From: Lama guanicoe
Taxonomy: Eukaryota
DNA: 64,000 bases
Assembly: GCA_013239625.1 (NCBI GenBank)
Contig: MU053557.1
Coordinates: forward strand, 1,929,063 to 1,993,062
Direction: 5' to 3'
This document shows positions 3,430 through 63,052 of the stretch, one piece after another. The translations under genes were made by a program, and so were the position numbers. Each line of letters begins with the position of its first letter. Positions within the stretch are counted from its first letter, which is position 1. The notes beneath the pieces were generated by a model. It had not been told where the DNA came from. It did no database searches and saw only the letters and a list, made by a program, of their open reading frames with translations.

Positions 3430-3612
3430 CTATTGATTGCAAATCTGGCAAGGCTGCAGGCCATTCTCGTTGCAGGCAGGGCACCGCAGGGCCCGATAGG
3501 ACTCCTTAAACCTGTTGGCCAGCATCGAGAACTTGCTGCCGTGGCACAGAGAGCAGGGGGCACTGCCCGACCCTCGGCAGTGAAAACAGCTGTCCTCGGG
3601 AAGCTCCCCTTC
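3430..3612 (-). CDS. GRXCR2: GRXCR2 coding exon 3 (Cys-rich C-terminus, 60 aa + TAG)
   Basis: Translates [12 protein letters not shown]...CSLC...CPAC...CQICNQ* (four CxxC motifs), matching the recalled GRXCR2 C-terminus; acceptor CAG|GAA at 3613/3612; phase 0. Confidence 0.97.
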
Positions 3613-3939
3613 CTGCAAGAGACAGGTCAGGGTTAAGTTACAGCAGCAGTGCAAGGCCATCATTCACACGCAAGTCAAAACAGTATGAGGCGGCCAAAGG
3701 CTGGGGCAGAAGTAGAGGGAAATGATTCCACAAATGCCAAGGAAAGAACTGGCCGGAGGCACAGGATAATCCCCGCATTTTATCAGAGACTTCCCTGCTG
3801 GACCCCTCTAAGACAGCAGCCCCTCCCCCAGGGCATGCACTCCACCAGCTGACATTCATCTCTCATTCCCCTCTGACGTGTTACTCCTGTATGCACTGTG
3901 AGGGCAGGACTTAATGTTCCCCACTGCCAAACACTCACA

Positions 3940-13219: not shown

Positions 13220-13334
13220 TTTATTTATTTGTTATTAATTTTAGGGGGCAATCAGACTTATTTATTTATTTATTGAGGAGGTACTGGGGAATCGAACCCA
13301 GGACCTCCTGCATACTAAGCATGTGCTCTACCAC
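13220..13334 (-). mobile_element. tRNA-derived camelid SINE (Vic-1-like)
   Basis: Reverse head GGTACTGGGGAATCGAACCCAGGACC...CTACCACTTGAGCT and (TTTA)n tail. Confidence 0.82.
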
Positions 13335-15502
13335 TTGAGCTAAACTCTCCTCCCTTTCAGAGCCATTACTTTAAATTGTTGTGCTTAACAGCTACCCAAC
13401 ATTGCTGCAGAGTCAATATTTACCCTGGGTTGTTTTAGAGTTGGATTTGTTACTGAAAGATCATGACTTCCCAGCTCTCATTTCCTTATTTTAGCTAAGT
13501 ACCACCCTGACCACCTGTTTCAGTGGGTGGAGCAGCAAGAATCCATCCTGACCATCCTCAGACCAAAAGGGTGGCTGACAGTGGGATGTGGCATTGGATC
13601 AGATAACACAGAAAGCCGGGAATCAGATTGAGCAGAAACCAACCCCGGAACCTGGTCTCTAGAGTGCTATGTTTAAGCCCATTGTGCAGTGCAGCCGTGA
13701 AGGCTCGGTTATCTGATTTTATTAAGTTCCTGCTAATCATACTTTTACATAGATGCCAAGTTTGACACATGGCTTACGAAGGGCAAGCAGTCCAATATCA
13801 TAAACTGTGGCCTTGTACAAGGTTTATATAAACTATGATTTTGTCAATTCTAAACCTACAAATGAGATTTAGTTAAAAAGAGGTACTGTAAGCACAAGAC
13901 ACGGCCAAGTACCTAGGACACAATAAATACTCAATAAATGGTAACTATGATCATCTTCATCATTAATAGTGGCCTTTTTCTCTTAAAAGGAACATTCCAT
14001 AGGGCCAAAAGCATGGGGAATCAGAAGACCTGGGTTTTTTTTTTCTAATTTTGATTTTAGAGCTAAACTTTAATAGAATGTGGAAGTTTGAACTCTTACA
14101 CTTTTAAACAAACAAAACCTAAAAATCAGTGATTGGTTGAAAATGGTTTTATGGAAAAACAAATCCGTAACAAAAACTTGGCATTGAGTGTGAAGGCTTC
14201 ACTGTTTGAGCAAAGCGTACAGTTTCCCAGAAGACCTGGGTTTTATTCTCACTCTTCACCTAATGCCCTGATTATAGTGGGTGAGTCCCTTACAACTTGG
14301 CACTTAATTCTCCTCATTTGCCAAGTGGAAATGACCATACTACGCCTTTCTCCTCAAGGTTGTGGAGAAGATCCTATGATACAGAAGGTGATAATGTTTT
14401 GCAATGCATAAGTCACTCCACTAATGTTAGGAGTTGTTCATTCCAGTCCCCTTTAATATCAAAAAGAAACCTGGTATTAGCTTTGATAAATGTAGACATG
14501 CCCTTAATTATTCTTTCACCAATGCCAGCAAGGCCAGTACATTTGTCTGCTATAGATGTATTATCTGTTCCCCTAGGAAATTAACAATAAAAATGATTAG
14601 AGAGTAATTATCTAAACTTCACACTTTAAAGATGAAAACATAACCTGGTGTGCTATTCGTTAATAACCTGGTACATTATATAATTGGATTTCATCTTTTT
14701 TTTTTTTAAGGCATTCACGGTCCTGCTGGCAGAGAGCACACACACATCTATTAGTTTGTGGAAATCAGTGAATAATTCCCAGGTTCTTCTAGCTTAAAAG
14801 AAAATCATGTATGGGCTTTTGATTAACCCTGGTACTGGAGAAGATAACCGAAATTCACAGATAAAAATACATGTTTCAGTTGAACTATTAGCTCAAACGT
14901 CTTCCCCATGTAACATTTCGTCTGGCTAATTTGCTTTTCACCATTTCTTCCCAGGACTCCAACTACCCAGTGCTCAGGCTAATGAGCAATGGAAAGGCTA
15001 AATAAATAAATAAATAAATAAACACATTTTTAAAAAAGGAAGCAGCAGGAGGGAGATAAGAAATAAAACAAGACACGGAGAAACCACAAGCTAAATAATT
15101 GGCTGAAGTAAAATGAGCAAGCACCCTCAAACGCTTAGCTCTTTCAGGAAACAAAACAACCCATTGCCACATAATTTTCTACACCGGCAGTCTGGCAGCC
15201 TGAAAACCACTGCATCTCTATTTCATTTACTTACCGAGATAACCCAGCCAAAGACCCAATTATCATTTGTTGCCCTGGATGGAATTTGAATACTACCTAT
15301 GCTTACTGCATTTTCCAATAAGTAGTCAACCAGCATGTTATATTTTGTCCCAGAAATATTATTCTGATAGTGGCTTCACAGTTGGTGCACCTCTAGCTCT
15401 GGCTGGTACTGGAACATGAGCAGGATACAGATGGGAAACATTTAGGTGCTTCTCTAAACACATTTTCATCCTTAAAGCTTCTACGCCATGCGCAATACCA
15501 AC

Positions 15503-23604: not shown

Positions 23605-24846
23605 TTCCATTCTTTTTTATTGAAAGTATAGTCAGTTTACAATGTTGTGTCAAGTTCTGGTGTACAGCACAATGTTTCAGTCATACACAAACATACATAT
23701 ATTTGTTTTCATATTCTTTTTCATTACAGGTTACTACAAGATATTGAATGTAGTTCCCTGTGCTATACAGTATAAACTTGTTGTTTATCTATTTTATATA
23801 GTAGTTACTATCTGCAAACTTGGGACTCTCAATTTATCCCTACCCACTCCCTTCCCCCCGGTAATCATAAGTTTTTCTCTGTGTCTGTGAGTCTGTTTCT
23901 ATTTTGTAAATAAGTTCATGTCTTTTTTTCAGGTTCCACATGTAAGTGATATCATATGGTGTTTTTATTTCTCTTTCTGGCTTGCTTCACTTAGAACGAC
24001 AATCTCCAGGTCCACCCATGTTGCTACAAATGACATTATTTTATTCTTTTTTATAGCTGAGTAATATTCCATTGTATAAATATACCACAACATCTTTGTC
24101 CAGTCATCTGTTGATAGACATTTAGGTTGTTTCCATATTTTGGCTATTGTAAATAGTGCTGCTGTGAACATTGGGGTGCAGGTGTCATTTTGAATTGTAT
24201 TTTTCTCCAGATACATGCCCAGGAGTGGGATTGCTGGATCATATAGTAAGTTTATTTTTAGGTTTTTAAGGAATCTTCATACTGTCCTCCACAGTGGCTG
24301 CACCAATTTACATTCCCATCAATAGTGTAGGAGGGTTCCTTTTTCTCCACAACCTCTCCAGCATTTATTTGTAGACTTCTTAATGATGGCTGTTCTGACT
24401 GGTGTGAGATGATACCTCACTGTAGTTTTGATTTGCATTTCTCTAACAACTAGCGATGGTGAACATCTTTTCATGTGCTTATTGGCCATCTGGATGTCTT
24501 CTTTGGAGAGATGTCTATTTAGGTCTTCTGCCCACTTTTTGATTGGGTTGCTTGTTTTTTTGATATTAAGGTATATGAGCTGTTTGTATATTTTGGAAAT
24601 TAGTTCCTTGTCAGTCACATCATTTGCAAATATTTTCTCCCATTCTGTAGGCTGTCTTTTCATTTTGTTGATAGTATACTTAGCTGTGCAAAAGCTTTTT
24701 AATTAGGTCCCATTTGTTTATTTTTGCTTTTATTTCCATTACTTTAGCAGCTGGTTCGAAAAAAATATTGCTGCAATTTATGTCAGAGTGTTCTATGTTT
24801 TACTCTACAAGTTTTACAGTATCTGGTCTTACCTTTAGGTCTTTAA
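23605..24846 (-). mobile_element. 5'-truncated L1 (ORF2 C-terminus + 3'UTR)
   Basis: ORF2-like peptides [15 protein letters not shown]...[12 protein letters not shown] and TCTPMFTAALFTIAKIWKQPKC; near-identical flanks TTTTCATA(T/C)CATTTT at ~23590-23604 and ~24847-24861. Confidence 0.92.
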
Positions 24847-25239
24847 TTTTCATACCATTTTAATACAAAAAAAAGTGACTTTAACTTGAGTCAAACTTAA
24901 GGTAGAATCATTTACTCAGGATTGTATCCAGTCACAGAAAATTCTGATGGGTTTTTGAAAGTAGAGATGACTTAAGAAACAAAATTAATCAATTATAATC
25001 TCATATGGGGCTTATTACCTTTTTTATTGAAGTATAGTTGATTTGCAGTGTTTCAGGTATACAGCAAAGTGATTCAATTATACATCTATTTTTTTCAGAT
25101 TCTTTTTCATTGTAGGCTATTACAAGATATCAAATATAGTTCCCTGTGCTATACAGTACATCCTTGTTTTTTTGTTTTTGTTTTGGTTTTGGTTTTGGTT
25201 GGGGGATTTATTTATTTATTTTAACAATTAGGAGTAAGA

Positions 25240-25444
25240 GTTGCACTGTCTGATATAATAGTCTCTAGCCACAGGTAGCTAGATACATTAAAATTAAAAA
25301 TAAAGAAAATTTAAAAATTCAGTTCCTCAGTTACACTATCTCCATTTCCAGGGCTCAGCAGCCACTTGCGTTGGACAATATTGTATTGGTCAGTGCAGAT
25401 ATAGACATTACCATCACCATAGAGAGTTCTATTGGACAGCCCTG
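25240..25444 (-). mobile_element. MER3 (hAT-Charlie MITE), near full length
   Basis: Reverse complement CAGGGCTGTCCAATAGAACTCTCT...ATATCTGCACTG...ACTGAGGAACTGAATTTTTAA matches the recalled MER3 consensus. Confidence 0.75.
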
Positions 25445-25449
25445 GTCTA

Positions 25450-25540
25450 AGGTACAGGCTTTGGAATTGAGCAGACTTGAGTTGGCATCTCATGTGACTG
25501 TGTGACCTTGGACAAGTCACTTGCCCTCTCTAAGTCTCAG
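25450..25540 (+). mobile_element. MIR fragment
   Basis: CTGTGTGACCTTGGACAAGTCACTTGCCCTCTCTAAGTCTCAG core. Confidence 0.75.
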
Positions 25541-25542
25541 GG

Positions 25543-26346
25543 TTTTTTTTAAAATTTTTTTTCATTGAGTTATAGTCATTTTACAATGTTGTGTCAATTT
25601 CCAGTGTAGAGCACAATTTTTCAGTTATACATGAACATACATATGTTCATTGTCACATTTTTTTCATTGTGAGCTACCACAAGATCTTGTCTATATTTCC
25701 CTGTGCTATACAGTATAATCTTGTTTATCTATTCTACATATGCCTGTCAGTATCTACAAATTTTGAACTCCCAGTCTGTCCCTTCCCACCCTCCGGCCCC
25801 TTGGCAACCACAAGTCTGTATTCTACGTCTATGAGTCTGTTTCTGTTTTGTATTTATGTTCTTTTCTTTTTTTTAAGATTCCACATATGAGCGATCTCAT
25901 ATGGTATTTTTCTTTCTCTTTCTGGCTTACTCCACTTACAATGACATCCTCCAGGGACATCCATGTTGCTGCAAATGGTGTTATGTTGTCGTTTTATGGC
26001 TAAATAGTATTCCATTGTATAAATATACCACAGCTTCTTTATCCAGTTATCTGTTGAATTTAGGCTGTTGTCTTGGCTATTGTAAACAGTGTTGCTATGA
26101 ACATTGGGGTGCAGGTATCTTTTTGAAGTAGGGTTCCTTCTGGATATATGCCCAGGAGCAGGATTCCTGGGTCATATGGTAAGTATATTCCTAGTCTTTT
26201 GAGGAATCTCCATACTATTCTCCACAGTGGCTGTACCAACCTGCATTCCCACCAGTAGTGTAGGAGGATTCCCTTTTCTCCACAGCCTCTCCAGCATTTG
26301 TCATTTGTGGACTTTTGAATGATGGCCATTCTGGCTGGTGTGAGGT
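25543..26346 (-). mobile_element. Nested 5'-truncated younger L1 with its own poly(A)
   Basis: ORF2-like [25 protein letters not shown]...DTCTPMFIATLFTIAKT; T-rich tail at 25543-25562. Confidence 0.9.
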
Positions 26347-26652
26347 TACAGTACATCCTTGTTGTTTATCTATTTTATGTATAGTGGTGTGTAACTGTTA
26401 ATCCTGAATTCCTAATTTACCCTCTCCCCTCCCTTCCCCTTTACAACCATGTTTGTTTTCTACATCTGTGAGTCTGTTTCTGCTTTGTGAAAGTTGTTTT
26501 GTGTCTTTTTTTTAGATTCCACATATAAGTGATATCATATATCTGTCTTTTGCTGTCTGACTTACTTCACTTAGGATGATAATCTCTAGGTCCATCCATG
26601 CTGCTGCAAATGGCATTATTTCATTCTTTTTTATGGCTGAGTAGTAGTCCAT

Positions 26653-35918: not shown

Positions 35919-36019
35919 GGAGGGAGGGAAATAGCTCAGTGGGAGAGCACATGCTTAGCATGCATGAGGTCCTGGGTTCAATCCCTAGTACCTCCATTAT
36001 AAAATAAATAAATAAAAAC
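35919..36019 (+). mobile_element. tRNA-derived camelid SINE (Vic-1-like)
   Basis: Full head plus A tail; TSD AAAA(T/G)GCAGA(T/C)TCT at ~35905-35918 and ~36020-36033. Confidence 0.88.
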
Positions 36020-39151: not shown

Positions 39152-39895
39152 AATCATAGCTTAACCAGAGCAGAGACTCATAGAGAAGAACAGAGAGCAG
39201 AGCGAAGCGACGGAAAGGGACAGATAGGCAGGGAAGATGCGTCAGAGTGCGTGGGCGGTGAAGGCGCTGGAGAAGAGGGAACTGCCGTGCGCAGAGCTGG
39301 AGGAAGGCTGTTCTAGACGGAGGCGGGTTGCAAAGGCCTAAGGCGGGGAGAAGCGTGGCCTGGTCGAGAAAAGGCAGGAAGGCCAGTGTGACCGGGGAAG
39401 TCAAAGGCGGAGTGGGCAGACGGGAGATGAGGTGGGAGATGAAGTGGGAGTTACAAGCAGGGCCCGGTTCACGAGGTCCTGGTGTGGATGCACGGTTTTA
39501 CTCACGGAGGAATGGGAAGTCATTGAAAGACTTTTTAAACGATGCTGATATGCTCTGATTTGCATTTTCCAAAGGTAACTGGTCGAATGGATTTTTGAGC
39601 ACATGTATGGTGACTATATTTTTAATAAACTTTTTATTTTGGATTTGAATAATTTTAGATTCACAGAAAACCTACAAAAATAGTACAGAGACTTCCTATA
39701 CCCTTCACCCACTTTCTCCTATTATTAACATAACCATCGTGTTTTCAGCACAACGAAGACTAACAATGATAGATTACCACTAATTACACTACAAACTTCG
39801 TCTGGATTTTACCAGTTTTCCCACTAATATTCTTTTTCTGTTCCAGGATCCAACTCAGAATAGCACACTCCCTTTATACTCATCATATTTTATTG

Positions 39896-40438
39896 TCTTA
39901 TTTTTTAAAAAATTTTTGCCTGGGTTATTTTTTTTCCATTTTTTAATTGAGGTATAGTCAATTTATAATGTGTTAATTTCTGGTGGACAGCATAGTGATT
40001 CATTTATACATATGTATATTCCTTTCCATATTCTTTTTCATTATAGGCCATTACAAGATACTGAATATAGTTCCCTGTGCTATACAGTACATCCTTGTTG
40101 TTTATCTATTTTACATACAGTAGTTAGTATCTACAAATCCCAAGCTCCTAATTTATTCCTCCCCACCCCATTCCCCACTGGTAACCACAAGTTTGTCTGT
40201 GAGTCTGTCTCTTTTTTGTTAAGTTTATTTGTGTCCTCTTTTTTTTTTTAGATTGCATATTTAAGTGATATGGTATTTTTCTTTCTCTTTCTAGCTAACT
40301 TCACTTAGAATGACTATCTTCAGGTCCATCTATGTTTGTGTTGCTGTTGCTGCAAATGACATTATTTTATTCTTTTTTATGGCTGTGTAGTATTCTATTG
40401 TGTGTGTGTGTGTGTGTGTGTGTGTATACACACACAGC

Positions 40439-40483
<45 letters not shown>

Positions 40484-40915
40484 TATATATACAACTTCTT
40501 TATCCAGTCATCTATTTATGGACAGTTAGGTTGCTTTCATGTCTTGGCTACTATAAATAGTGCTGCTATGAACATTGGGGTTCATATGTCTTATTTGATG
40601 GGGGAGGTAATTAGGTTCACTTATTTATTTTTAGATGAGGTACTGGGGATTAAATCCAGGATCCCATGTATGCTAAGCATGTGCTTTACCACTTGAGCTG
40701 TACCTCCACCCCTTTGCATGTATCTTTTTGAATTAGTTTCTTTTGGATATATGACTAGAAGTGGGATTGCTGGATCATAGGGTAAGTCTATTTTCAGTTT
40801 TTTAAGGCATTTCCACACTGTTCTCCATAGTGGCTGCACCAAACTACATTCCCACCAACAGTGTAGGAGGGTTCCCTTTTCTCCACAGCACCTCCAGCAA
40901 TAAGCTTTTGTAGAT
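39896..40915 (-). mobile_element. 5'-truncated L1 containing a compound microsatellite and a SINE
   Basis: L1 3'UTR and ORF2 end ([28 protein letters not shown]); (TG)/(TA)/(CA) tract at ~40399-40492. Confidence 0.85.
40593..40712 (-). mobile_element. tRNA-derived camelid SINE nested in L1
   Basis: Reverse head GGTACTGGGGATTAAATCCAGG...ACCACTTGAGCTGTACC. Confidence 0.8.
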
Positions 40916-41854
40916 TCACCATCTTTTAAATAGTCTTTCTATCTTTGAGGACACATCCAGGTCAGCTAGAATCAGCTTCTCTAAGTTGTAACTAAAAGTC
41001 CTGACAGATAAGGGGGAGAAGTGGATGCGGGCAGGCTACTTCTTGAGCTACTTCAGTTCTCCAGGCAAGAAAGGAGGGAGCCGACTCCAGAGACTGGGGT
41101 GGGGAGTCAACTGAGTCATACAGTCACATCTCTTTATAGTACCTCATAGAATAAAGGTAATTTTAATGCCCTCAAATTAGGAAGAACATTGCCTCTGAAT
41201 AGACAGCCTTTTTACATTGAATGACTTTAGCTTTATGAAAAACTTACTACACTGCTCTACATTTTCTCATTTTTTGAGAAGAATGAAACTTCATATGCAC
41301 TTACACTGGTCCAGTCCATAGAATATCATCTGGGGACAACTACCTCAAAAAAAAAAAGTGATTCACTGAATTACAGTCACTTAATCAACAAACATTTACA
41401 GAGCACCTTCTGCATTTCAGGCTCTATGCTGCTCTCAAGATCAGTATGTTTCCTGCTCTAGTAGAGTCTACAGCCTATGTGGACATCAGAAAAATTAGAA
41501 GCACGCCGTGGACCAAAGAAAATCAAATAACTAATTGCAGAATGACCTGCTTAGAGGTTTATTACCAACCTGATGGAGCAAGCGATTACAGGCAACTTGA
41601 CATTGATGAGTTGGCTGTAAATTAAGCATAACAATTGGGAGTGCCCGTGCAGGAGATTGTATCTGGGATGGGGTGGGTGGCTACTCCTCTTCTTGGGAAA
41701 AAAGCCTCCTGTGGGAGGTGGGGCTTCCAGCACAATTCAGGAGGAAACCACATCTGGGGCAACTTCAGCTGTGTCTGTACCTGAACAAGCAGCTGTCTTT
41801 ATAAGCTTTCTCTGGTGCAGTATCTCTTCCCTGCTCCTTCCTGGTCATTTCAGT

Positions 41855-42247
41855 TAGTCTAAACAGGGAGTCAAAGGTGAGGGAATCCAAACTGGGAGTT
41901 CGTGATTTGCAGATACTAATTACTATATGTAAAACAGATGAACAACAAGGTCCTACTGTACAGCACAGGGAACTATATTCAATACATTGTGGTAACCTAT
42001 AGTGAAAAAGAATATGAAACGGAATATATATATATTTGTGTGTGTATAACTGAATCAGGATGCTGTACACCAGAAACTGACCCAACATTGCAAACTGACT
42101 TCAGTAAAAAAGAATGCAAAAAAAATAATCTTGAAATGGTCTATACTGAAAAAGAATATGAAAAGGAACATATATACGTATTACTGAATCCTATGCTGTA
42201 CACCAGAAACTAACACAATGTAAATCGACTATACCTCAATAAAAAAA
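41855..42247 (+). mobile_element. Two tandem L1 3' termini
   Basis: GAAAAAGAATATGAAA...GCTGTACACCAGAAACT occurs twice (~42004 and ~42148), each followed by an A tail. Confidence 0.8.
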
Positions 42248-45187
42248 TTTTTTTTAAGTTAGGGAATCCCTTGGTAGGAGATCTTAGACCAAAAGATAAA
42301 AATCTTGCTCCTAGTTAAGAAGATTAAAAAATAATAACAAAACGCCACTGAGCTCCCACAGTAAGCACAGCAGATAAAGACGAACAGCTCCTCCCCAGCC
42401 ACAGAGGTCAAGGGTGAAGCGCAGAGTGAGGGCAGGCAACCAAGTGTTGCTGGGGTCCCAGGATTTCAGTTCCGCTCTCCGGCATCCAGAGGGGACTGCT
42501 CGAGGCAAAATCAGGTCACTACCATCTAAAGTGCTTTTTGTTTCCTTGTCCTGATGCTATAGTCTGAGAAGCAGGGGTTGCTTTTCAAGAGTGGCTTGGA
42601 GGCCTCTTGCATCAGGATCACCAAAGGTGCTTGGAAAATGAAGTCTCTGGGCCTTTCCTAGGCCTCCTGAGTCAGAATTTCCAGAACCTGCAGTTCAGAT
42701 CAGCTCCCTAAGTGATCCTGACCTGAAACGTGAGGACTGCTGTGCTAAGGGCACTCTGCCTATCTATGGATGACCGAGACGAGAGGAAGTGTGAGGAGGA
42801 TGCAAACCACCGACCAGGAAGAGGCCTTGCAGGAGCTGACAGATGGAGGCAGGTGCAGGGGGCCAATGCCCGCCACCTTTCCTGTGCTCTCCCTACTGGG
42901 AGAGAATGGCCAGGTTCAGGTCACCTTCAATGGTCTGTGGATGTTCTGTAAACCCCTCTAGTTACTGTTACTGCCTGGCTTGACCTTTCCGAGGTTACTG
43001 TCCACCTTAGTTCTCTAGGGTCCTGTGGGCTGAGAACTTCAAAAACCAGAGATTACCTACAGGTTTCCAGAACAAAACCCAAGCTGGTGAGCCCTGCCGA
43101 TTAAGAAGTTGGGCTCCGGACTCTGGACACTAGAAGGCTGTGTGTCCTTGAACATCTCCCTGTGCCTCGGTTTCCTCATGTATACAGTGGGTTTATCACC
43201 AGGACACCCCTCCTCGGGACGTTTTGAGCAGCAATTGAGACCATCCATTCTCAGCTCTCAGCCTGTGCTTGGAACAGAGTTCACGCAGGACAAATGTTGA
43301 CTTAAACATACAACCTGTCAGACATGCCGGACCCCACGGGGAATTGCCCACAGCGCACCCGGCTGATAAGAGTCACCACGGAGGTGTGGGGACCTGGGGG
43401 AGAAAGATGAGCTTATTCATGGGGACCAGATGACGCTCTGCAGGGAAGTCAGAGAGCTGTGCTAGGCTGTATGGGAGGCGAGGGGGTGGAGAAAAAGGTG
43501 GGACGCTGCTCAGAGCCTCTGCTTGTGCTGGGGCGGGAATCATGTGTGATGGGAAAGGAAAAGAAAAGGGAAGTGACAAACTCGCTGTGCATGTGTCTAT
43601 CATCCCGGATGAGCAATAAAGATGATGAGAATCCTCAAGACCAGGCTGCGTCATTCAAGGAAGAATAGAAAAAGCTTGTTATTAGGGGAAATTGATGCTC
43701 TGTGAAACCAGAGCTTTTAGAACAAAGAGAATCAGATTGGCATTTTGGGAGGCTGGGGAAGTGTGTTTCATTCAAGATTGGTTACAGGCCTTGGGGTCTT
43801 TTGTTTTCTGCTATTTCATTATTTTCCTGTCCCATTTTCTCCCCCAGGCTCCAGGCTGAACCCTGGGGTACGGGGGGCATCTATTAAAAAAAAAAACCCT
43901 TGAAGTGGAGGTATCGGGGAGGGGAGAATTTCTTGTCAGGGAAACACACACAATCTGTATTTTGAAGGGCCTTATTTGAACTGCCTAGAAAATACTTCAG
44001 AGGCAAGTCTGAACAATCTGATTGATCACAAACTCAACCTTATAATTTTCAAAGGAGGCAGTACAGAGGATGGTGGAGGACGTGGATGCAGCTCTCGAGG
44101 CCAGGATTCAAACAATGATCAGACTAAGATGACTGGCTGTGTTACCTTGGAGAAACCACTTAACCCCTCTGAGCCTCAGTTTCCTCATCTGTAAAATGGG
44201 GTCGAGATTATAACTAATCTTATAGAGTTGTCATGAGAAATGAGGGAGGGTTGTGCAGAGCAAACCCTCAAAGAAAGGGCACTGTCCTCATCAATGTCAT
44301 TGCCGCCACTATTCATAAGAGATTATGGGAAAAACAATGGAAGCCGATACAGAATCAAGATGGTCCCTGGTTTAGAATCACAGCAGCATTCAGGAAACTC
44401 ACAAACCCCCTGTTTCATCCCCAACAGCAGTGGGAGCCATCGCCAGATCTATTTTGTAAATTCCCTGTTCTTTCTGAGAAAGCACTTATTTCCAGGGCTG
44501 GAAGTCTCCAGAGCCCACGTCTCCTCTAAGTTACAGAACGGTATTGCTGGGTTGGGATAGACCAATTCTCCACAGAAAATGCCCGCTGCCCCCACCCCAC
44601 CCCACCACCAGGAACCAATTCCCAAGTCTCCTTTCTTCCCCAAAGTCAATTCCCAAGGCACAAACGGTGCAGAAAGCAAGCAATGCTTGTTGTTCTTTCT
44701 CAGGTTTCCCTGGTTTTTGGACCCACGAGTTTGTGTTTCTGTGTTCCAGTCTCCCCAGAGCTGGGGATGACTTTAAGGACATTTCAGAAAGAAAGGAGGT
44801 GTGAGAATGAGGGTACGTGTGCAGGATACAGACAAGGACCATGATCAAAAAACAACGACAACGACAAAACACTCTCCAGCTCATTGAGTTCATCGAGTCA
44901 TTCTGTAAACCCTGACAGCATCCCCAGTGTGTGGCAGGCGCTGTGCCGGGGACTGGCCAACAGAGAGAAGAGAACACGGCCCATGATCTAGAAGTTTACC
45001 GCCTGGGGTGGGGCAGGGTATAGCTCAGTGATAGAGTGCATCCTCAGGGTTGGCCCAGTGATGCCTCTTGATGAGATTACTGGGCTCTGTCCCATGGACC
45101 GGTGAACACCTAGGGATATCCCCAAATATCTCCCCATCCCTCACCTGTCTCCATGCCTGAATTCCCTCATTGGTCTCATTTAAATCC

Positions 45188-45279
45188 TTTTTTGTTTTCC
45201 TTGTAAATGGCAGTACTGGGGATTGAACCCAGGACCTCATGCATGCTAGGCATGTGCTCTACCACTGAGCTATACCCTC
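45188..45279 (-). mobile_element. tRNA-derived camelid SINE (Vic-1-like)
   Basis: GTACTGGGGATTGAACCCAGGACCTCATGCATGCTAGGCATGTGCTCTACCACTGAGCTATACCC. Confidence 0.87.
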
Positions 45280-47496
45280 GTTAGCCTTCTTTTTGGAATA
45301 AGGGACCATCCCTTGGTTGTATGCCAATAGCCCTAGGAGCTGCCATCACCAGCCACACCAAAACCACTTTCCTTAATCCCCTTCACAGAACTTTACAGTT
45401 TACAAAACACTTTATTATCTGGCAGTAGGGTAGGCAGTTTTGTCCCCACCTTCCAGATGAGGAAGTTAAATAATGAGCCTCTGGCCTCAAAGCTCAAAGG
45501 TGACAGATCTGGGACCTGAACCTGACTCCAAGTCTAGGGCCCAGCAGAGCTGGCCAGGGTCACCATTATTCTTAGCACCTGAGGTCTAAGTTCCTCTTTC
45601 CTCTCAAAAGTAGATGCTTTGTGGTTCTGATGGAGAAAGTCGACTTGGTATGGAGTTAACGTCCTACTCTGCATTCTTCAAGAGCTCCACGGAGGGAAAT
45701 GCTGAGGGGTCGTGTGTCCTTCAGTACTCACGCAGAGGCTGCCCAGCCCCGTGGGCATGGGGAGAGGTCAGGGTGGCAAGGAACAGCTAGTAATAACGGC
45801 CAGTCCCTGGGTGTGACCCTGGGGCCAGCACTCTGCAGCATGCCTCAGCTACATCCCCCAAGTGTCCCTACACCCCCCGTTCCCACCAGTACAACTATAG
45901 TCCTTCGCACCCCCATCATGTAGAGATTTCTCCCCACACAGAGGCAGAACCTTAGGAACAAGTCCCCTTGTGTTCTTCATTACTATTTACTACCCACCCA
46001 CAAGTCCCTGTGGGAATTACCTTGGCATCTCCATGGGTGCAGTGGCCTCCATGAAAACACCGCTTTCCTGCCTCCTGGGACCTTAAACCCTTGAGAAGTG
46101 AAACAGACTTGAGGTCCCTTGTGTTTTCACCCCACCCCTGGCTCCTGTGTAAGCCCTTTCCCCAACTCCACGTCGTGTCACCTCAGCCTCTGAGTTACTG
46201 AGCGTCCCACGCACCTGGGGAGAGCAGACCCTTCAGCTATGGCTCTAACCCCTGCCTTCCGGGGTCTGAGCATCAGTCCTTGGGGTCAGGCAGGGTCAGA
46301 CTCCTCACAGGCCACCGGCTGTCCCTGGGCCCCCAATTCTTTCCCCAGGCCCCACGCAAAAGACTCCACCCTTCTCTTTTCGTCCAAAACTAGATAAACA
46401 AATTGTGGAAAATGGAGAATCTGGGTCACACAGATCAACTGAACATTGCTGGATAATTCCAGAAACATGACAGCTCAGGGAGGGCATGCAGCAGTTGGTC
46501 CCAATCCTAAACTCTTACAAATCCCCCCCGTAGTAACGATAGCTGTCATTTATCAAGTCCTCACATACTTATCCAAATAACCCTCACCAGGACTCTTTGG
46601 ATTAAGTACCACAACTGCCCCCGTTTAGATAAGAAAATGGGGGTTTAGAAGGTCACTTGCTGAGGTCACCCTCTCCGAGCCAGAAGGTCAAGGGATGGGC
46701 CCCATCTATCTGATCCCAGAACCTCAACTCTGCACCCTAATGCAGCACTGAGTCCCCCCCAGCCCCCTAGCTGTGTTTGAGGAGGTTGCAGATCTAGGTA
46801 GCATTTCTTGCGACTTGATTGCTCTGAGAAACAATGACAAAGGAGAGCTTAAGTATTGGGTGGGGGGGTGGGTGGAGAAGAAACTGTTAATTTTAGCTCT
46901 GTAACTCAGACTGCTCATTAAGTGACAGAGGTGTCACCATGCCCCTTATCTTTGCCATCCACCTTCTAAAATAAAAGAGTCAGGGCCTATGATTTCCTCA
47001 GCAGGAAGATTCACCCTTCAGGGGACGATGGGGTGTTTTTCACAAGTCACCAAAAGAGACACTGGCCTGCGAAAGTCTCCTGTCATTTCTCCCAATTTCC
47101 CCCAATTGTGCCCTCAACACTTGGTAATGAGTCTTGTGCAATAGGATAATATTCCAGAAACTTGTTTTTTAATGGAGGCCTGCCCCAAGGGGGCCAGCCA
47201 AACCTGTACTGGGACCTGGTCAGTTCGGGCCCCTCATCCCCATGTCTGAATCACAGAGACGTCCTCTGCAGCAGTGACCTGTGGATTCTAACCCCCTAGA
47301 ATACTAAGTTCCTCCTCCTCACTGCTTATCTTAGTTCTACATAAAGTGAAAATTAAGCAATTATTTGACATAAGCCAAAACAAGAATCCTAAAGTTAGAA
47401 TTCGAGCCAGGGGGTGGTAACTACAATATTACCCCTACCTGAAAAAACAAAGGGTGATGGTAGCTCACACCCGTCTGGTGTTCACTGTATCCCAGG

Positions 47497-47660
47497 CCCT
47501 GTTCTCAAAGTGTAGCCGGGACCACCACATCAGCATTGCCTGGGAACTGGTGAGAAATGCAAATTCTCAGCTCCCTGCACCCAAAGACTTAACTGAATCA
47601 GAACTCCTGAGGATGGAGCCCAGCGATCTGTTTTAACAAGCTGTCTGGGTGATTCTGACA
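47497..47660 (+). mobile_element. MER5A (hAT-Charlie MITE)
   Basis: TTCTCAAAGTGT...CATCAGCATTGCCTGGGAACTGGTGAGAAATGCAAATTCTC...ACTGAATCAGAA...TTTTAACAAGC...GGTGATTCTGA. Confidence 0.75.
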
Positions 47661-48904
47661 AGGTACCTGTAGAGCAAGGTACCATATGCTCTAAAGTTGG
47701 GAATGCAGTCTGACTTCACCGAGTCCTTCCAATGACCATGGAAGGTGTAGGAACCACTGGAGAAGAAACCTATGTTTCTAAAATACCGAGCCCTGTCCAA
47801 AGTGAGTAGCAACGCCAGGATTGGAACACAAGGCATTCTGCTCCCCAAAGAACTGCGTCCCTAAACACACGTTTCCTTACTGATGAAAAGTAAGAATGGC
47901 CGAGGCAGGGAGACAGATCACTATTCCCATGGAAACCAATTAACAGTAGCTTCGGTCCAGGGAGGGGAAAGACGTTAACATCTATTGAACATCAGTTATG
48001 TGCCAGTCACTGTACATAAATATCTCGTTTCGCTCTCACAGAAGCCCAGGCCAGGTAGGCATTCTGGAATCAGATCAGGCAGGGTAAGCAACTTTCCTAG
48101 GCTCTCACACCTGCGTAAGTTGCAGAGCAGAATCTGAATCCTGCTTAGTCTGTCTCTAAAAATCCTCCCAGCCTCCCTGGGGCACACTCACCACATTCAG
48201 CATAAGCATGTGACCTCATGGCAAAAAAAAAGAAAAAAAAAAAAACTAGAAAACCAGGGATAAATGCCTATGCAGCAGCAAATGAGATCACCCCGCTCCA
48301 GGGGTAAAAACTACCTTGGCAGCAACTCTGGGGCTTTTACAGCGTCACCCGTCACCCCAGGCTGCTCCTCCCTCCCCTCCCTTTTTCCGTCTCAAAAACC
48401 ACCGACTTTTCCCTTTCACCTGTGAGACAGGGAAGTTAAGTTCTTACTAAATTAAACATGTCTGTTCTCTTCCTATAAAGTGAGTATTCATCTGCCTTTC
48501 CAGGGAAGCAAGGCCTTTCGTGGGTAATGATGCCAGAAATTGGGTGAATCGCCAGTTGAAATCCTAGCTATATTCAGCGTGGATTATCATAATGTTATGA
48601 ATGCCTTTAACCAGCTCCCCACACAGAACACATACACACCCTCGAAACTGGCGTGGAATTTACCAGCAACCTTCCCCAGTTGGTGGCTTAATGCACTTGC
48701 AGGCAATATATGACATGTCATGAAACATCTAAAATCAAGCAGCACAGGAAGATCTAAAACTTAAAGCTACAGTTTCTCTGCCCTCATTTTGCAATTTTTT
48801 TTAAACAAGTTGCTGTTTCTTTTCACTTAAAAAAACCAAAACACAGAATTTCCCCCTTTGGTTCACAGAGTCATGGAAATTCTGGGTAAAAATATTTGTT
48901 GACA

Positions 48905-49053
48905 GCAGGGTGGGGGTATAGCTTAGTGGTAGAGTACAAGCTTAGCATGCACGAGGTCGTGGGTTCAATCCCCAGTACTTCCATTAACAACAACAAAATG
49001 TTTTTTAATGTTTACCATAATAGTGAAAATGTTGAAAACAATTATATAAAAAT
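48905..49053 (+). mobile_element. tRNA-derived camelid SINE with extended tail
   Basis: Head GGGTATAGCTTAGTGGTAGAG...CCCCAGTAC; TSD ATATTTGTTGACA at 48892-48904 and 49054-49066. Confidence 0.85.
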
Positions 49054-49982
49054 ATATTTGTTGACATAAATATATAAAACAGCCCCCAAATCTCCCTAGC
49101 TTGAAAGTGGTCATTGGCTCGCGGGTCTTTTAGGGAGGAGACCAGGCATCCTGGTCTTCTTTGTCCAGCACTGTGATCAGATGGCTGCTCACACTGCAGT
49201 CTCAAAGCCTGACACCTCCTGCCACAAACTCAGTGCTCAGGTGCTACAGAGCACAGGCTGTTCCCAGAAGGTCCCAGGTCCTCTCCTGCCTTCATGCCTT
49301 TACACCTGTGGTCTCTCAACTGGAATCCCCCCTCCATGCCTTTACGGGGCTAACTACTCCTGCTCATCCCTCCGAACTCAGCCCAGGTGTCAACTCTTCA
49401 GGGAAGTCTTCCCTGACTTCTGCCACCAGAGTCCCCCAAGGGACGACGTGCTGACCCTCATCACACTACTTACCATGCGATTTTATGATAGTCATTTACT
49501 TTGGTGCCCCTTCCAAAGCTGGGAACTACCTAAAAAGATCTCACTGTTGTCAGGGCCCAACACAGGGCCAGACACAAGGTAAGCACTCAGAATATCTTTG
49601 CTGAATGAGTGAATAAACGAGTGACTGAATGACGATCTCTTCGATACTTTCCCACAAGCTCCGGATGCACAATGGAAATGAGACAGGGGGTCGTTCTCTC
49701 TCAACAGCCTTAAAATGCTGCTCCCACCCTCAGGGGCTCAAATGGCCCCACATGGCCGGAAGTGGCTCAAGGCTGCAGAAACCCTAGTCTAAAGTGTTAT
49801 CTAGATGAGCCCAGGGGTGTTCTCCAAACTCGAGATTCTTAATGTTGGTAGCAAAACCAAAGCAAGGCCAGAATCCTGGGAGTGGCTCCTGTCTGGAATG
49901 GTCTGGAAATTTACTTTGGTTCAGACCTTCTAAGCATAAGGCCAGTGCAAGCATGTGTATGTGTATTTATTATAAAAGCACT

Positions 49983-51576
49983 AGGTAGAAAAGAAAGCAC
50001 CGTTGCTCTAAAGCTCAGCAGACGGGCAGGGGAAGGGCGTGTGCAGCTATGAGCTAGAGACCTACCTGGAGTCCAAAGGCAGGACTGGACCCCAGCACAC
50101 TGTGTTCACTGGCCCTCCACACTGGGCCAAGGGAACCCCAAAGCCTCGGATCCTACCCTGGCTGGTGTGGCAGCTGGACGTGGGGCAGCCGGAGGGCAGG
50201 GTCTGGCTGGACCAGAGCCATGTGCACCTCCGCATCCTGCAGAAGCATGGTTTGCAGCAGGACGCCTAGCAAGAGGACCTCCACATCTTCCAGCCTGGGG
50301 ATGCCAGTGGTCCTACACCCCTGGGAAGGACAAGCCTGACCTGCAGACCTGGAAGAGGAATTTCCAGTCTGCCCCGAACTGGAAGGAAGTGTTGCATTCA
50401 GCCAAGAATAGAGCAAGGACCCCCGTGACCTGCACTAGATCTGAGAGTTTGTGACCTCAGGAGTTGGGGACTTTCCTGAGTCAGATACCTCTCCAGATGC
50501 CAGTGACAGATGTGGTACCTCTAATACCCCAGAGGAGTTCCTGAGTCGCACGGGCTTGGCCCCAGTACCAGACACTGGGCTCTCGTGTCTGGCTGTGGCC
50601 CCTGAGCACCCTCCTGACCTTTTGCTGAACCCCAACTTAGAGATCCCAGCTCCCTGCCCAAACTCGGACCCCCACTCCCACCCCAGAAAACCCACTGAGG
50701 CAGCTGTTGCTACTAGAGGAAGATGAGTGCCAACTGTGGAATGGGAGGGGCAGGGGCTGGGACAGTGGGTCCCCTTACACTCTCTCAGTCTCCCTTTTCA
50801 CATCACTGCTGCCACTGCTGAGAGTGGGAATTCAGGGGACCACTGTCCTCCTGGGTGCCAAGTCTTTCAGCACACTGTCCTCTGCCTAAAGGACCTATGG
50901 CTAGTGGGGTCAGAAACAGGGGACAGGACACTGCCTGGGCAGCCAATAAGACTATCAGGCCCCGGGATGTGACAGGCTACAGGCGGCATGTCCTGAGCTG
51001 CCTGGGCAGGGAGGCGGTAGGATCAGCTCCGTGGAGAGCCTGGCAGTGCTTTGGGCCCAGAGCCTGGGGCACTGTCACTGGTACTGGGCTGTGGCAGGAG
51101 CCCCTCACTGGTGCTGGTCCCCAACATGATGGCGAGGTCCCCAAGAACAAGAAGGGAGGCATGTTCGACCTGGGACCTTTTGTGGCAGATCTGATCATCT
51201 TCAAGGAAGGAAGCAGACACTCATTATCTACACCCTATAGTTCTGTGTCAGGGAGTCATTGCCCCAGGGCCAGCTGTGGATCAAGAGTCTCCTGATGGTC
51301 AAGGTGGTTCCCATGTGTCTCAGCTCCCTGCCAGATGTGGCCCAGTTAGGAGTGCCTTCTCACTGGAGAATACCAGAGACCTGTACATTTCCACCAGCCA
51401 TCCACTCCCCTTCACCTCGGACCAGTTCAAGGCCTACCTCCAAGACCTGGTCAAGGACGTGGATTTCTAGGTCACTGGAAAGGCCTGAGCCTTCCCTCCT
51501 CATGAGTATAGTCCCCACCCTGCACTTCAACCAATCAACTTTTTCTTGCCACCATCACGAAAAAACCGTCAAACAT
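49983..51576 (+). pseudogene. IRF3: IRF3 retropseudogene (semi-processed, one retained intron)
   Basis: Collinear IRF3-like peptides across frames: GTPKPRILPWLVWQLD, KHGLQQDA, GKDKPDLQTWKRNF, VTSGVGDF, QVFQHTVLC...GSETGDRTLPG, DGEVPKNKKGGMFDLGPF, MVKVVP, SLENTRDLYISTSHPL...FKAYLQDLV. Start ATG>AAG (50129), several stops and frameshifts, ancestral TGA at 51486-51488, decayed polyA signal AATCAA (51533-51538), A-rich tail, candidate TSD AAAGCA(C/A)T. Confidence 0.95.
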
Positions 51577-54500
51577 AAAGCAATGTACAGACAGTGGAAA
51601 CCCATACTCTGACAGTGGCCCATACTATGATTTTCCAGAGACAGCCATTGTTAAGAGTGTTTCAGAGGTTGACATGCAGTGAGCCTGAAAGACAAATCCA
51701 GTTTACAGATGATCGTGTACAATATTTTTAAAGATAATTCTATTAGTTGCCACGAAATAAAAAAAAATCAAGAGTTTCATGGAATTGGGATACTTTTATG
51801 GAGCTTTGAAGGTGGCAGAGAAGGAAACGGACTACTACAAAGCAGTGTGAAAAGTACTGTGATTAACAGCTTTCCTTGGAAAACTCAAAGATCCGCCACC
51901 CTATTGGCAATGATTCGCTGCAGCTGAGTGGTGCCATTTGCTTTCACATAGGGTGTGCTCCCAAGGTTGTCATAGTCCCTACCTGACCCATTTATAAAAC
52001 CAGTCTGGCCCCCATGTGCATTTGAGTTTGCAATCACTGATGTCTGTCCTTACAAAACCCTCTGTAATACTATGAGTATCGTGAGCACTGCCTATAATCT
52101 CTTTTCTATTATATCCGTGTCAGCACATACAGCTCTACCTACATATTCCTCTGGGTGACGACATTATGCTATATCGAACCAATCCCTTCCTGATGGATGT
52201 TTAGGTTAGTTCCATTTATCTCTAGTTACAAACACTGTAACAGTAAATGCTTTTGTATATATCTTTGGGTATTTGGGCATTTCTCTTGAATAAACTAAAT
52301 GTGAAATGACTTGCGTGAAAAGAAATACATCTTTAAATTTTCAGCAGATAATGACAAAATGCTGAAGATGGGTTAGAATCCAGGTCATTTTTTTTTTTTT
52401 TGCCCCAAGCAAGGGGCAAAGAGTGGCAAAGCTGGAGAGTGACATCAAGAGATGAACTGTCCAACATTTGAGCCCTTTTCTTCCATAACCATACTCCTCT
52501 ACTCCTAATCTACCCACAGCTGACTGGCACAAATACTGCAAGTGGAAGAGGCAGACTTAGCAGGACGAATGTATTTTAGAGTTCTAGCTGAAAAGTTATT
52601 TCACAGTCATAAAGTGGGCATGAAAACAAAGTGAGATAATCATTCAGGTTATATTTATGGGATTCTCCATTTGTTATTAAAAACAAAAGAAATTTTCATC
52701 CACATATATTGATTAGTCTTTAGGCTTTTGGCATTTCTTATTATTTTATCTAAACAAGATACTGTACTCCTTTACTTTCTGTTTCAGGCTTATTTCCCCT
52801 TCTGTTTGATGTATGTTAACCTGATGTTACTGAGTAAAGGCTGCTTACGTTTCCAAGGTTTGGGCTCTACTGAGTGGAACCAAAGATAAAAATCTGGGAT
52901 CAAAATTACAATAAGGAATTGACTAAAATAGCCTCTTTTTTTTTTTTTAAACATGATAAATGCAGCGAATGGGATGACTTGAAGGTTAAGAGTAGAGGTT
53001 GCCTGGGTAGACGTCCTGACCTCCCTCAAGCACTAGCTGGGGCAAAACATAACCCCTCTAAGTCTGTCGCCTCATCTATTAAGACGGGGTAATAACAGGG
53101 TGATAGTTCTTTGCAGAGAATCTGACACAAAATAATGTTCTTTGTTATTATTTATTCTAACATAATAGCCAACCCCACCCCCTCTGAATGTCCTCTAGGA
53201 TGCTGCAATGGCCAACACCACATAAGCCACTGGGCAGCTACTGTGTGAGCTGACACTTTATGTAATGGGCAAATCAGAATGAATAACTCCTTGAGGAAAA
53301 GAAGCCAGGAGTGGGGCTTAGTTTTAAACTGTGCTTTAGATGCAACACGATAGATAATAAGAGGCCTGGTAAGAGGATAATGGCTAGCCTTTACTTAGCA
53401 CTGACTCTGTGTCACACTCTTTGAAGCATTTTATAAGCATTTTCTCAGTATACGCACACAACGATCCTATGGAACAGGTGCTAGTTAGCATCCCTGTTTT
53501 ACAGATGAGAAAACCAAGTACAGAGTGTTTTTAATCAACTCGCTCTAGAGCATCCTCTTATTCAGGAAGATGGCATCGGCCTTCTGACATCAGAGCTTAC
53601 AGTCTTAACCACTAGAGTAAGTTAGAAACAATGACAGAAAGAGGTCAGTTACAGCCAGTAATATCTTTCAGTCAACTTCTATGCACCAGACACTGGGCTA
53701 CCAACACGTAGTAGGAAGTTTATTCCTTATGTCAAGCCTAAGGATTACATATTCCTCATAGCACTTTTATGGATGGGACTTAGAGCTATTGAACACCCAG
53801 AGTCACAGAGCTCTTAATGGTAGAAGTGATTTTCCAAAGCATGTCTGCAGATTCCAAGTCCTGAGCTTTCATCCTTGGAATGCAGTAAGAATTCCAAACA
53901 CAAATGAGTCATCCTCACCTCTCAGCAAATATTTATTAAGCAGAGATTTATTAACAGAGATTATGCAGAGGAGAGATAATTTATAGGGACAAGTGAGTAA
54001 ACAACATTTTCTATAGTTAATATATAATTAGCATCATCACAGGGCCCCCAAAAATCTAATTGATTTGACAAATGTCATCTACAGACAGTTACAGGAAAAC
54101 AATTCTAATTCTCATTTTAAAAAAAGAGGAAGCCTTTTGTGTATCACGTATTTTCACATTATCCTTGAAGACCTACCTGTGAAGAGAGGCATCTGGGTCT
54201 AATCAGGGCATTTAGGGAATTACTAAGTTTTGCAACTTTTCCTGCCTGCAATCACAAGTACAAAGTTGTGGTTACTCAACAGCCTAGGCAAACAGTCAGC
54301 TTTTGCACAGACTTGCCCTGAGTTTAATAGAATTAAGGTTGCATCCTGCTCAGGGTTTTGAATCAAAACATGTCCTGATTTCATCAGCAAAGAAACAGTG
54401 AAGGAAGAGAAGGAAGACGGGTTGCGATCACAGCCTTCTTCCTTTGTGAGGCGCAGTATCTGTTAGGGATTAACATCTACTTAAAGCAGTTTCAGAGCTT

Positions 54501-57177
54501 TGCAGCTTACTTTTCCTTTCTTTGGCCAGCTTATTAATTGTAATGCACAGACTATTATTGTTGGAGGATTTAACTCCACCTGTTGTAAATGTTTTAGTAA
54601 ATCTATCATGATTTAAGCTATTTTTATTATCTTTGAACAAATTTATTACACTAGTAACATATGTTCATTGTAGAACATCTACAAATACACATGAGCAAAA
54701 TGAAAAGACTAAAATCAACTAATAAGTCCAGTGGCCAGAAATGACTGTCGGTGACACTTTGGCCTACATTCTTCTAGACTCAACGTTATCTATTTCTGTA
54801 TCATTCTTGAATAACCTGGGCTCATATGGCTTGTGAGTTTCTATGTTCACTTAATTGTGAACATCCTTCATGTCATCAAGTATATATCTCCACTGTCATT
54901 TTCAATAGTTGTAACATATGGTACAATTCGTTGTAATATATATACTATATATGTTATATATAATACATATATATATATATAAACACACACACATACATAC
55001 ACAACAGTGGTTCTAAGGGCTACCAGCACATAGTGTATATTATATATATGCCACCATTTACTTACCCATTTACCCATTCCCCTATGTTGGACATGAAGGA
55101 TGTTATTAACTTTTCACTACCGTAAGTATTTAGATGAGGAACATACTTGGGTATATATCTGTTGCATTAGTATAAATTTCTAACAGTGGTATTTCAGGGT
55201 ATTGTAAGTCTTTAGCTAATTTCAACTGGTCTTTTTTTCTTGCTTGCTTGCTTTTTTTTTTTCTTTTTTTTGAAATAACTATAAGCCCACAAGAAGTTGC
55301 AAGAGTGAAAAAGTGGTACAGAAAAGTCGTTTGCACCCTTCAGCAACCCTTCCCTGAGGGATAACATTGTATGTAACAGTAATGTGGCATAAAAGCTAGG
55401 ACACTGGCATAATGCAATAACTAGACTACAGACTTTACTTGGATTTAACCAGTCGAATTTTTTTTATATTAATAGAATGGTAAGACACATTCTCACTTTC
55501 CTACTTTCTCTCTTACACAGCAGCCTTTTGAACTCCTTCCTAAACCTCTGTAGAGGAAAGATTATCAACTATGTTTAGTAGACTACTGTCTTCTATTGAA
55601 AATCAAGAGGAAGAAATGCAAGTAAGAATCTCTCATCAGATGCAGAGGTGGTTGAACCCCCAACTGAGGCACAGAAAATGGGTAGGGTTCTGCCCTCCTT
55701 TCAGTTCTTCGCATCATTCCAGTCCCTTTATGATGCACTAGAACAGAGCATCCCAAAGCCTGGGGTACCCCAACCACAAAGTAACACTGAATCACACAGT
55801 GAGGAGGTTGCTCATTTCTCCTTCACTCCTTTGATCACATCAAGGACAAAGCCTCAGTTTGGGACTAGTCGTCAATGCCTCTCTGACACTTGCTAAGTCT
55901 CCCTTTTTAACAAATTGCTCAGGCCTCAAGTTCAGATGGAGGCGGGCCATATCATTTAACTGAAATTCAATGGCATTTTATTGTAATTAAATGTACTTTT
56001 GCCTTCAAATTGCAGCAGATGAAACTGGTTTTCCATTTACAGGAATATTGTTTAAATTTCCTTTCAAAACACATTTATTTCAACAACAAAAAAGTGATTC
56101 GATATAAAAAAAATGTGATTAGGGCAAAAAACAAAAAAGGTGGAATGCTAAAAACCGAGCTTAGGGATACATGGTGTTAGAGCCTTGTGGTCGGTGAAGA
56201 ATGGACCAGCCAGCCACATAGCCTGGCATACTCCCCTTTGGGTTGAGTTTGGGCAAGAGTAAGAATCACTGGGTTCCTGGTTCTCCTATGGGATCTGTTT
56301 ACAAAACAAAAAGACAAAACGTATTTCTACATCTATTAAGCACTTCTTGGATGCCTCATTTCATTGACTCCTCAGAACAACTCAATGAGATAGATTTCAT
56401 TGGTAAACTCATTTTAAACACGAGGAGTCCAAGAGATGGAGGAATGGAGTAATTTGCGAACTAATCCATCTAGTAACTGGCAGGGCTGGGATTCAGACCA
56501 GATGGCTGCTGGTTCATACTGTTTCTCATTAAACTTAAGGACTGTCAGTCATCTCTAGAAAATGTGGGATGACTCTATACCCTTGCCAGGAGTTTGGGTC
56601 CCTTTATTGTGGGTCTGGTGATTGCATAGGAATTCCCTAAAATATACTCCTGAGCTGAAGACATCCTCCTGACTGGAAAGGGTATCTCACAGTTAACTTC
56701 ATTCTGGACCTGCATCTTTCAAAGAAGGGCAGGATGTCTAACAGCCATTCAACCCTTGCCATTCCACCTTCCTAGACATTTCCACTATTGGAAAGATGCC
56801 CAGTTTTCTCCAATCATTCCTCTCCTTGAATAGTTCCAAAGGTTTCCCAGTATCATCAGAAAACCAAATCACGGGGGCAAATTTAGCATCAAGGATACAG
56901 ATAATATAGCTCCATTTAAATATTTAAAACATATATCCAAATTTATACTAGCTACTGAGGAAAGAAAGCAAAGAATTACAAAACATGGCCTATGCCAACA
57001 AAAGTCCAATGATGGTCAAGAAAGTCTTCATGATCCTTTCAATTTTAATGCTTCAGATTTCTAGCTACCTGGACTCCTTTGATGGACTTATGGGATGGTT
57101 TACAAATGATTAATTTTAAGGCAAAGCTTCTGAGACCACTGAAGCATTAAGAGCACGTCAAGTGGAAACACACACCT

Positions 57178-59992: not shown

Positions 59993-60079
59993 GCGGGCAG
60001 GTTATAGCTAGTGGCAGAGCATGTGCTTAGCATTCACAAGGCCCTGGGTTCTACCCCCAGTACCTCCATTAAAAGAAAA
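59993..60079 (+). mobile_element. tRNA-derived camelid SINE (Vic-1-like)
   Basis: Head plus A tail; TSD AAG(T/A)TTTTCCCATG at ~59979-59992 and ~60080-60093. Confidence 0.83.
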
Positions 60080-62674: not shown

Positions 62675-63052
62675 ATGGATGATGTGACCTTACTTGATCT
62701 TCTGGAGTGCCCCGTGTGCCTTGAAAAGCTCGATGTCACAGCCAAAGTCCTCCCTTGCCAGCACACCTTCTGCAAACCATGTCTCCAGAGGATTTTCAAG
62801 GCCCACAAGGAGCTGAGGTGCCCCGAATGCCGGACCCTGGTGTTTTGCAGCATCGAGGCACTGCCGGCCAACCTGCTGCTCGTGCGTCTCCTGGACGGGG
62901 TGCGCTCGGGGCCAGGCTCGGGCAGACGGGGCTCCTTCCGCAGGCCCGGCGTGCTGGCCTCGCAGGACGGCAGGAAAAGCAGGACTCAGCCCGGAGGTCT
63001 GCAGTGCAGCCCTTTCCGGCCGGTGCCGAACATCAGAGTCCACATGGATGGG
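62675..63052 (+). CDS. SH3RF2: SH3RF2 first coding exon (126 aa, C3HC4 RING E3 ligase domain); gene continues beyond the window
   Basis: AAAATGG start; [36 protein letters not shown]...CPEC...[13 protein letters not shown]; donor GGG|GTAAGA at 63052/63053; polypyrimidine tract and CAGCAG acceptor at 62573-62578; GRXCR2-SH3RF2 adjacency agrees with recalled human synteny. Confidence 0.95.

Follow-up and report, generated by a model that had tools for sequence, protein, structure and literature searches.

The genome of Lama guanicoe carries, at positions 49983–51576 of the window analysed here (64,000 nucleotides of contig MU053557.1, positions 1,929,063 to 1,993,062, assembly GCA_013239625.1), a stretch that resembles interferon regulatory factor 3 (IRF3) across many broken reading frames. 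What is this stretch, how was it made, and when did it enter the genome? An earlier note on this DNA had described it as a full-length IRF3 retrocopy, dead as a protein. Based on the analysis below, we conclude that the locus is a dead IRF3 retrocopy, that it is a semi-processed pseudogene, and that it was most likely inserted early on the cetartiodactyl stem; we put the probability of this reading at about 0.88. Coordinates refer to the window and, unless marked otherwise, to its forward strand.

An IRF3 copy spanning the coding region and both untranslated regions

Three frames in 50012–51609 have IRF3 as their best structure match in the PDB, with E values of 5e-14 to 3e-7 and better. Moreover, a frameshift-aware alignment with alpaca IRF3 (XP_006208513.3) covers residues 2–419 of 421, with 261 of the 400 aligned residues identical, and takes in the DNA-binding domain (DBD), the linker, the IRF-association domain (IAD), and the Ser-rich tail. 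Both the identity of the copy and the presence of the entire coding span, as first proposed, are thereby borne out. The Pfam matches of the copy to the IRF and IRF-3 families are weak and lie under the curated cut-off, and a homologue search with a 47-residue piece of its DBD returned no match.

The copy begins with a 5'UTR (49987–50128, its 5' edge being fixed to within about 15 nt). By tblastn, the N-terminal extensions that lemur isoform models of IRF3 carry match 49969–50102, with an E value of 3e-6 for 49992–50102 when the subject is 236 nt long, and the spacing from this match to the start codon agrees with those models, which upholds the 5'UTR presumed before. At 50129–50131 the copy reads AAG where IRF3 has ATG, followed by GTPKPRILPWLV. 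The DBD remnant (50132–50462, exons 2–3 spliced) shares 77 of 109 residues with alpaca IRF3, and the linker remnant (50463–50722, exons 4–5 spliced) 43 of 83. Beyond a 100-nt segment at 50723–50822, the IAD remnant (50823–51345, exons 6–8 spliced) is identical at 112 of 168 residues and the Ser-rich C-terminal tail (51346–51470) at 29 of 40. The 3'UTR copy (51471–51559) contains AATCAA at 51533–51538, probably a decayed AATAAA; 21 nt on, at 51560, an A run opens a tail of six A followed by A-rich sequence (51560–51576). Poly(A) signal and tail are both present and both decayed, as had been noticed from the letters alone.

A reading frame disabled throughout

The copy encodes no protein today. 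Besides the lost start codon, it has four in-frame stops, namely TAG at 50267, TAG at 50436, and TGA at 50442 in the DBD, and a further stop at 51238 in the IAD. Frameshifts lie near 50312 and 50413 in the DBD, near 50849, 50958, 51047, 51094, and 51224 in the IAD, and near 51352 in the tail, and a 10-nt insertion interrupts the linker at about 50670–50679. In total, nine small frameshifts and one 100-nt insertion break the frame into 11 segments. Additionally, DBD tryptophan W38 is replaced by CAG and W57 is out of frame. An intact ORF with the five DBD tryptophans and the IAD, as a functional retrogene would have, is absent, and the longest ATG-initiated ORF in the copy, at 132 residues, mixes frames. 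The earlier note had recorded the AAG and the three DBD stops correctly and had missed the stop at 51238; its picture of a heavily split frame holds, with 11 segments by alignment in place of about eight, and to the one DBD tryptophan that it counted as lost (W38), W57 has to be added as gone from the frame.

The tail remnant closes with TAG at 51468–51470. Within 51468–51488, the reading past this TAG continues as V-T-G-K-A-stop, which resembles the few residues by which IRF3 of deer, raccoon dog, sloth, and hominid type is extended at the C-terminus. We read this as a trace of a longer ancestral IRF3 end.

The copy retains intron 5

The coding junctions of IRF3, as deduced from indels among isoform proteins, fall at alpaca residues 55, 112, 135, 198, 325, and 364. 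In particular, 19 isoform proteins skip residues 198–325, which matches the skipping of exon 6 that takes out 127 residues of IRF3 in the isoform account of PMC8636596. In the copy, five of these six junctions are spliced, and the sixth, between exons 5 and 6 (residues 198/199), holds 100 extra nucleotides. At the same junction, ORF P0180 reads through 96 nt (32 residues); we take P0180 to be a hominid-type IRF3 ORF. Both ends of 50723–50822 match both ends of this read-through with an anchored score of 49, a value reached by none of 3354 GC-matched window pieces, whose maximum was 25. The segment starts with AT where P0180 implies the donor GT, and it closes with an intact acceptor AG. P0180 and P0207, which hold intron 5 in frame, were used for the intron sequence only and not as evidence that such an isoform occurs naturally; they probably derive from genomic or unspliced sequence, since both run on beyond the end of exon 6. 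Judged by this homology, 50723–50822 is intron 5 of IRF3. Introns 3 and 4, which are similarly short (28- and 45-residue in-frame read-throughs in isoform models), are gone from the copy.

Because it kept intron 5 and lost the introns at the five remaining coding junctions, the copy is a semi-processed pseudogene. The description as a full-length retrocopy thus stands in so far as this is a dead IRF3 retrocopy, and the idea that it is fully processed is overturned by the intron. The presence of one intron could also be read as the mark of an IRF3 duplication at the DNA level that lost its introns later. However, five coding introns are absent at their junctions, the homology appears to end where the mRNA ends, with an A run, and copy and parent lie on different dromedary contigs. 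The multiple clean junctions exclude this origin, and we give it practically no weight.

Insertion signature and genomic setting

The boundaries of the copy may be those of a transcript, with the edge of the 5'UTR homology at 49969–49992 and the 3' end at the A run. Its location is new: the dromedary copy is on a 120.7-Mb contig, and dromedary IRF3 (KAB1273305.1, also XP_010991480.1) is on a 77.3-Mb contig. The candidate target-site duplication singled out before amounts to the 6-nt AAAGCA (49975–49980 on the 5' side, 51577–51582 on the 3' side), and is no better than chance: among 4962 random pairs of flanks with matched GC content, 3390 do equally well. The LINE-1 signature is weak, with a chance-level duplication and only six A, as expected of an old insertion.

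On one flank, a GRXCR1/2 C-terminal domain is encoded at 3433–3663 (reverse strand), and on the other, a RING exon at 62675–63052 (forward strand). These genes are presumably GRXCR2 and SH3RF2. An Atlas search with the presumed GRXCR2 exon gave sub-threshold histone matches only, and a PDB search with the right-hand RING gene gave generic RING proteins only. The site proposed by the earlier note is accordingly supported at the level of the two gene families.

Several probable repeats surround the copy. Rfam reports only a tRNA-like SINE in 47000–55000, and ARAGORN marks five tRNA-like elements in the window (13275–13350, 35924–35996, 45208–45279, 48911–48984, and 59997–60068), which we take to be camelid tRNA-derived SINEs, probably not tRNA genes. 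ORFs at about 23965–26365 and 40621–40938 (reverse strand) resemble, to our reading, C-terminal fragments of LINE-1 ORF2. Furthermore, the flank stretches 49189–49576, 45714–46491, and 43172–43546 match proteins of other genomes at 39–59%; they probably represent either ancient repeats or orthologous non-coding DNA that was taken for ORFs.

Probably the same copy in dromedary, pig, and whales

A dromedary entry of 1125 residues, KAB1281075.1 (UniRef100_A0A5N4ECJ0), is named 'Interferon regulatory factor 3 [Camelus dromedarius]'. It aligns with the window over 39.3–51.5 kb (39276–51467) in 28 gapless segments, in flanks and copy alike, and the flanks of the copy are therefore the same in dromedary. 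Identity is 310/326 in the copy and 525/557 in the flanks (p=0.65), equivalent to about 2.5% DNA divergence. No Pfam family is found in the protein at E 0.01. This entry is the dromedary counterpart of the locus, and it differs from IRF3 itself in being a spurious gene model, in which upstream non-coding DNA is joined to mostly out-of-frame pieces of the pseudogene.

A homologue search over 1.84 billion representatives gave 26 matches, among which are models from fin whale (KAB0392840.1) and gray whale (KAJ8777224.1) and a pig-containing cluster (UniRef100_A0A8D1UCF8); no ruminant counterpart was identified among the 26. These three share 12 of the 58 covered residues that are private to the window sequence, compared with 20 of 5711 for a control set of 112 IRF3 proteins, where two of the 12 shared states stem from one frameshift and the controls are mutually related. 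Intron 5 is read through in the dromedary, fin-whale, and pig models, and the change of the donor from GT to AT is common to the camelid, fin-whale, and pig copies. Collectively, the shared derived states point to a common origin, and the dromedary, pig, fin whale, and gray whale models appear to represent one and the same copy, which would place it at an identical chromosomal site in pig and whale. The databases list the whale and pig proteins as uncharacterised, not as an IRF3 pseudogene. Separately, the Logan protein P0187 matches 51005–51202, shares one of three covered private residues, and resembles an IRF3 pseudogene of another species.

These models largely refute novelty in the terms that the earlier note had set, namely that the copy is already annotated and widely shared. 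The check proposed at the time, presence across species, comes out positive in the gene models of dromedary, pig, fin whale, and gray whale, the same flanks being seen in dromedary.

The common AT donor raises the question of whether intron 5 was retained because the transcript stemmed from an allele of IRF3 in which the donor of this intron had been lost beforehand, which would make the copy the fossil of a splice-null allele. The sharing of the donor change by all three copies speaks for such an origin, as does the removal of introns 3 and 4, which are of similarly small size. However, by a rough clock with an assumed total divergence of 0.18–0.24, the probability that one of the two donor bases was struck by chance between the insertion and the split of the lineages is 7–16%. 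Moreover, incomplete splicing of short GC-rich introns is a common source of intron-retaining templates, far commoner than such an allele. We regard the splice-null template as very unlikely, and favor incomplete splicing of an IRF3 transcript.

Age and phylogenetic placement

At 15 cetartiodactyl-diagnostic columns, the copy shows the outgroup state in eight, the cetartiodactyl state in four, and another state in three. At 15 camelid-specific columns, it has the ancestral state in seven (three of which are one event), the camelid state in one, and another in seven. In the protein tree, built from 34 of 57 aligned rows, the copy is sister to crown Cetartiodactyla with support 97/85, and the AU test rejects its grouping with camelid IRF3 (p=0.0125). 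CpG decay may account for two of these four cetartiodactyl-like states (TGC and ATG). In a tree of 25 rows from which the two CpG-prone columns were dropped, the copy still falls outside the crown, with no resolved position there; the AU test again rejects the camelid grouping (p=0.017) and leaves the stem position standing (p=0.27). By this second tree, the copy may be older still. Because the retrocopy branch is long (0.54), the attachment point is imprecise.

A fully processed, camelid-specific retrocopy, with the 100-nt segment as a later unrelated insertion, would account for the raw identities, whose highest values include camel (0.668) and alpaca (0.662) alongside fruit bat (0.671), and for the one matching column among the 15 camelid-specific ones. 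However, the segment lies on the exon junction and its two ends both match IRF3 intron 5, both AU tests reject the camelid grouping, and the intron, the donor change, and the private residues are common to the pig and whale models. The intron homology and the sharing with pig and whale refute this alternative, which is barely credible. A single insertion early on the cetartiodactyl stem, rather than a camelid novelty, is most likely. A cetartiodactyl-stem insertion would predate about 60–65 Mya. The earlier expectation that an older IRF3 sequence is preserved here is borne out.

Eight of the nine small frameshifts lie in segments that are gapless with the dromedary model, and the copy was therefore dead before the Old and New World camelid tribes split, an event placed at about 15.8 Mya in PMC13603154.

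Decay, expression, and confusion with IRF3

The CpG observed/expected ratio of the copy is 0.18, as in methylated DNA, and in the dromedary comparison its conservation is no higher than that of the flanks. In two reproductive-system RNA-seq runs of one study, 0.24–0.25 of the words of 49000–52500 are present, a word share that is compatible with genomic carry-over; in two further runs, the share is 0.07–0.08. Many Logan contigs, of RNA or DNA source, contain ORFs that belong to the pig copy. The reproductive-system share of about a quarter and the Logan contigs would fit a locus that is dead as a protein but still yields a transcript, in reproductive tissue for instance, and that this non-coding RNA regulates IRF3 or the neighbouring gene. 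However, the word share fixes neither the part nor the strand, the conservation and CpG values are those given above, an identity to the parent of at most 86% limits base-pairing, and Rfam offers nothing but the tRNA-like SINE. We consider such an RNA very unlikely, and function at the RNA level is probably absent. The broader proposition that the copy is the fossil of a splice-dead-allele transcript from an early cetartiodactyl ancestor, a still transcribed IRF3-related non-coding RNA in reproductive tissue, or both, is unlikely.

Even with every synonymous site matching, the nucleotide identity between the copy and alpaca IRF3 is at most 85.9%, with 10 frame-breaking indels and one run of 18 identical residues. 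Given this identity and these indels, confusion of reads or PCR products with IRF3 appears unlikely from the sequences, and the confound for camelid immunology that had been suspected is weak. Confusion in annotation is real, as KAB1281075.1 demonstrates.

Proposed origin and relation to known retrocopies

The favored reading can be set out as follows. A polyadenylated IRF3 transcript, from which all introns but the short intron 5 had been removed, would have served as the template. It would have been reverse transcribed and inserted, most likely by the LINE-1 machinery, at a new locus in the germline, early in the lineage from which camels, pigs, and whales descend. Reverse transcription by LINE-1 is an established route to processed pseudogenes. 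Without a promoter, the copy would have decayed neutrally, with some changes, including that of the intron donor from GT to AT, probably fixed before the camel, pig, and whale lineages split, and most frameshifts before the split of Old and New World camelids. The germline IRF3 mRNA that was earlier deduced from the copy is indeed implied and unremarkable, because any inherited retrocopy entails it.

Semi-processed pseudogenes are a known class. In the retrocopy definitions given by PMC3449122, murine preproinsulin I is the example, and the likeness is close: it too is derived from mRNA, lost most introns and kept one, and has a poly(A) signal and tail at a new location. In contrast, preproinsulin I still has a promoter and works as a gene, whereas the IRF3 copy has no start codon, four stops, and nine frameshifts, and its retained intron, intron 5, lies in the coding region. 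With functional IRF3 and the isoforms covered by PMC8636596 (IRF3a, -nirs3, -CL, and 3b–3f), the copy shares exon junctions and domains; it encodes none of these isoforms, and none in the table of that paper retains intron 5. A search of the open-access literature by title and abstract found no paper on an IRF3 pseudogene, and the portion of PMC12220609 consulted does not mention retrocopies; an existing RefSeq or Ensembl LOC annotation is possible, and the locus is already in the databases in the form of mis-predicted proteins.

The significance of the copy is modest, and knowledge of interferon signalling is unchanged by it. It has already produced wrong entries, namely the 1125-residue dromedary 'IRF3' and the uncharacterised whale and pig proteins, which are a risk for name-based comparative immunology. 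The copy would also be a time capsule of an IRF3 that predates the split of camels, pigs, and whales, with its 5'UTR and intron 5 included. As such, it may be useful to polarise changes in cetartiodactyl IRF3 and as a neutral reference, and, scored as present or absent among ruminants, hippos, horses, carnivores, and bats, it would serve as a ready phylogenetic marker.
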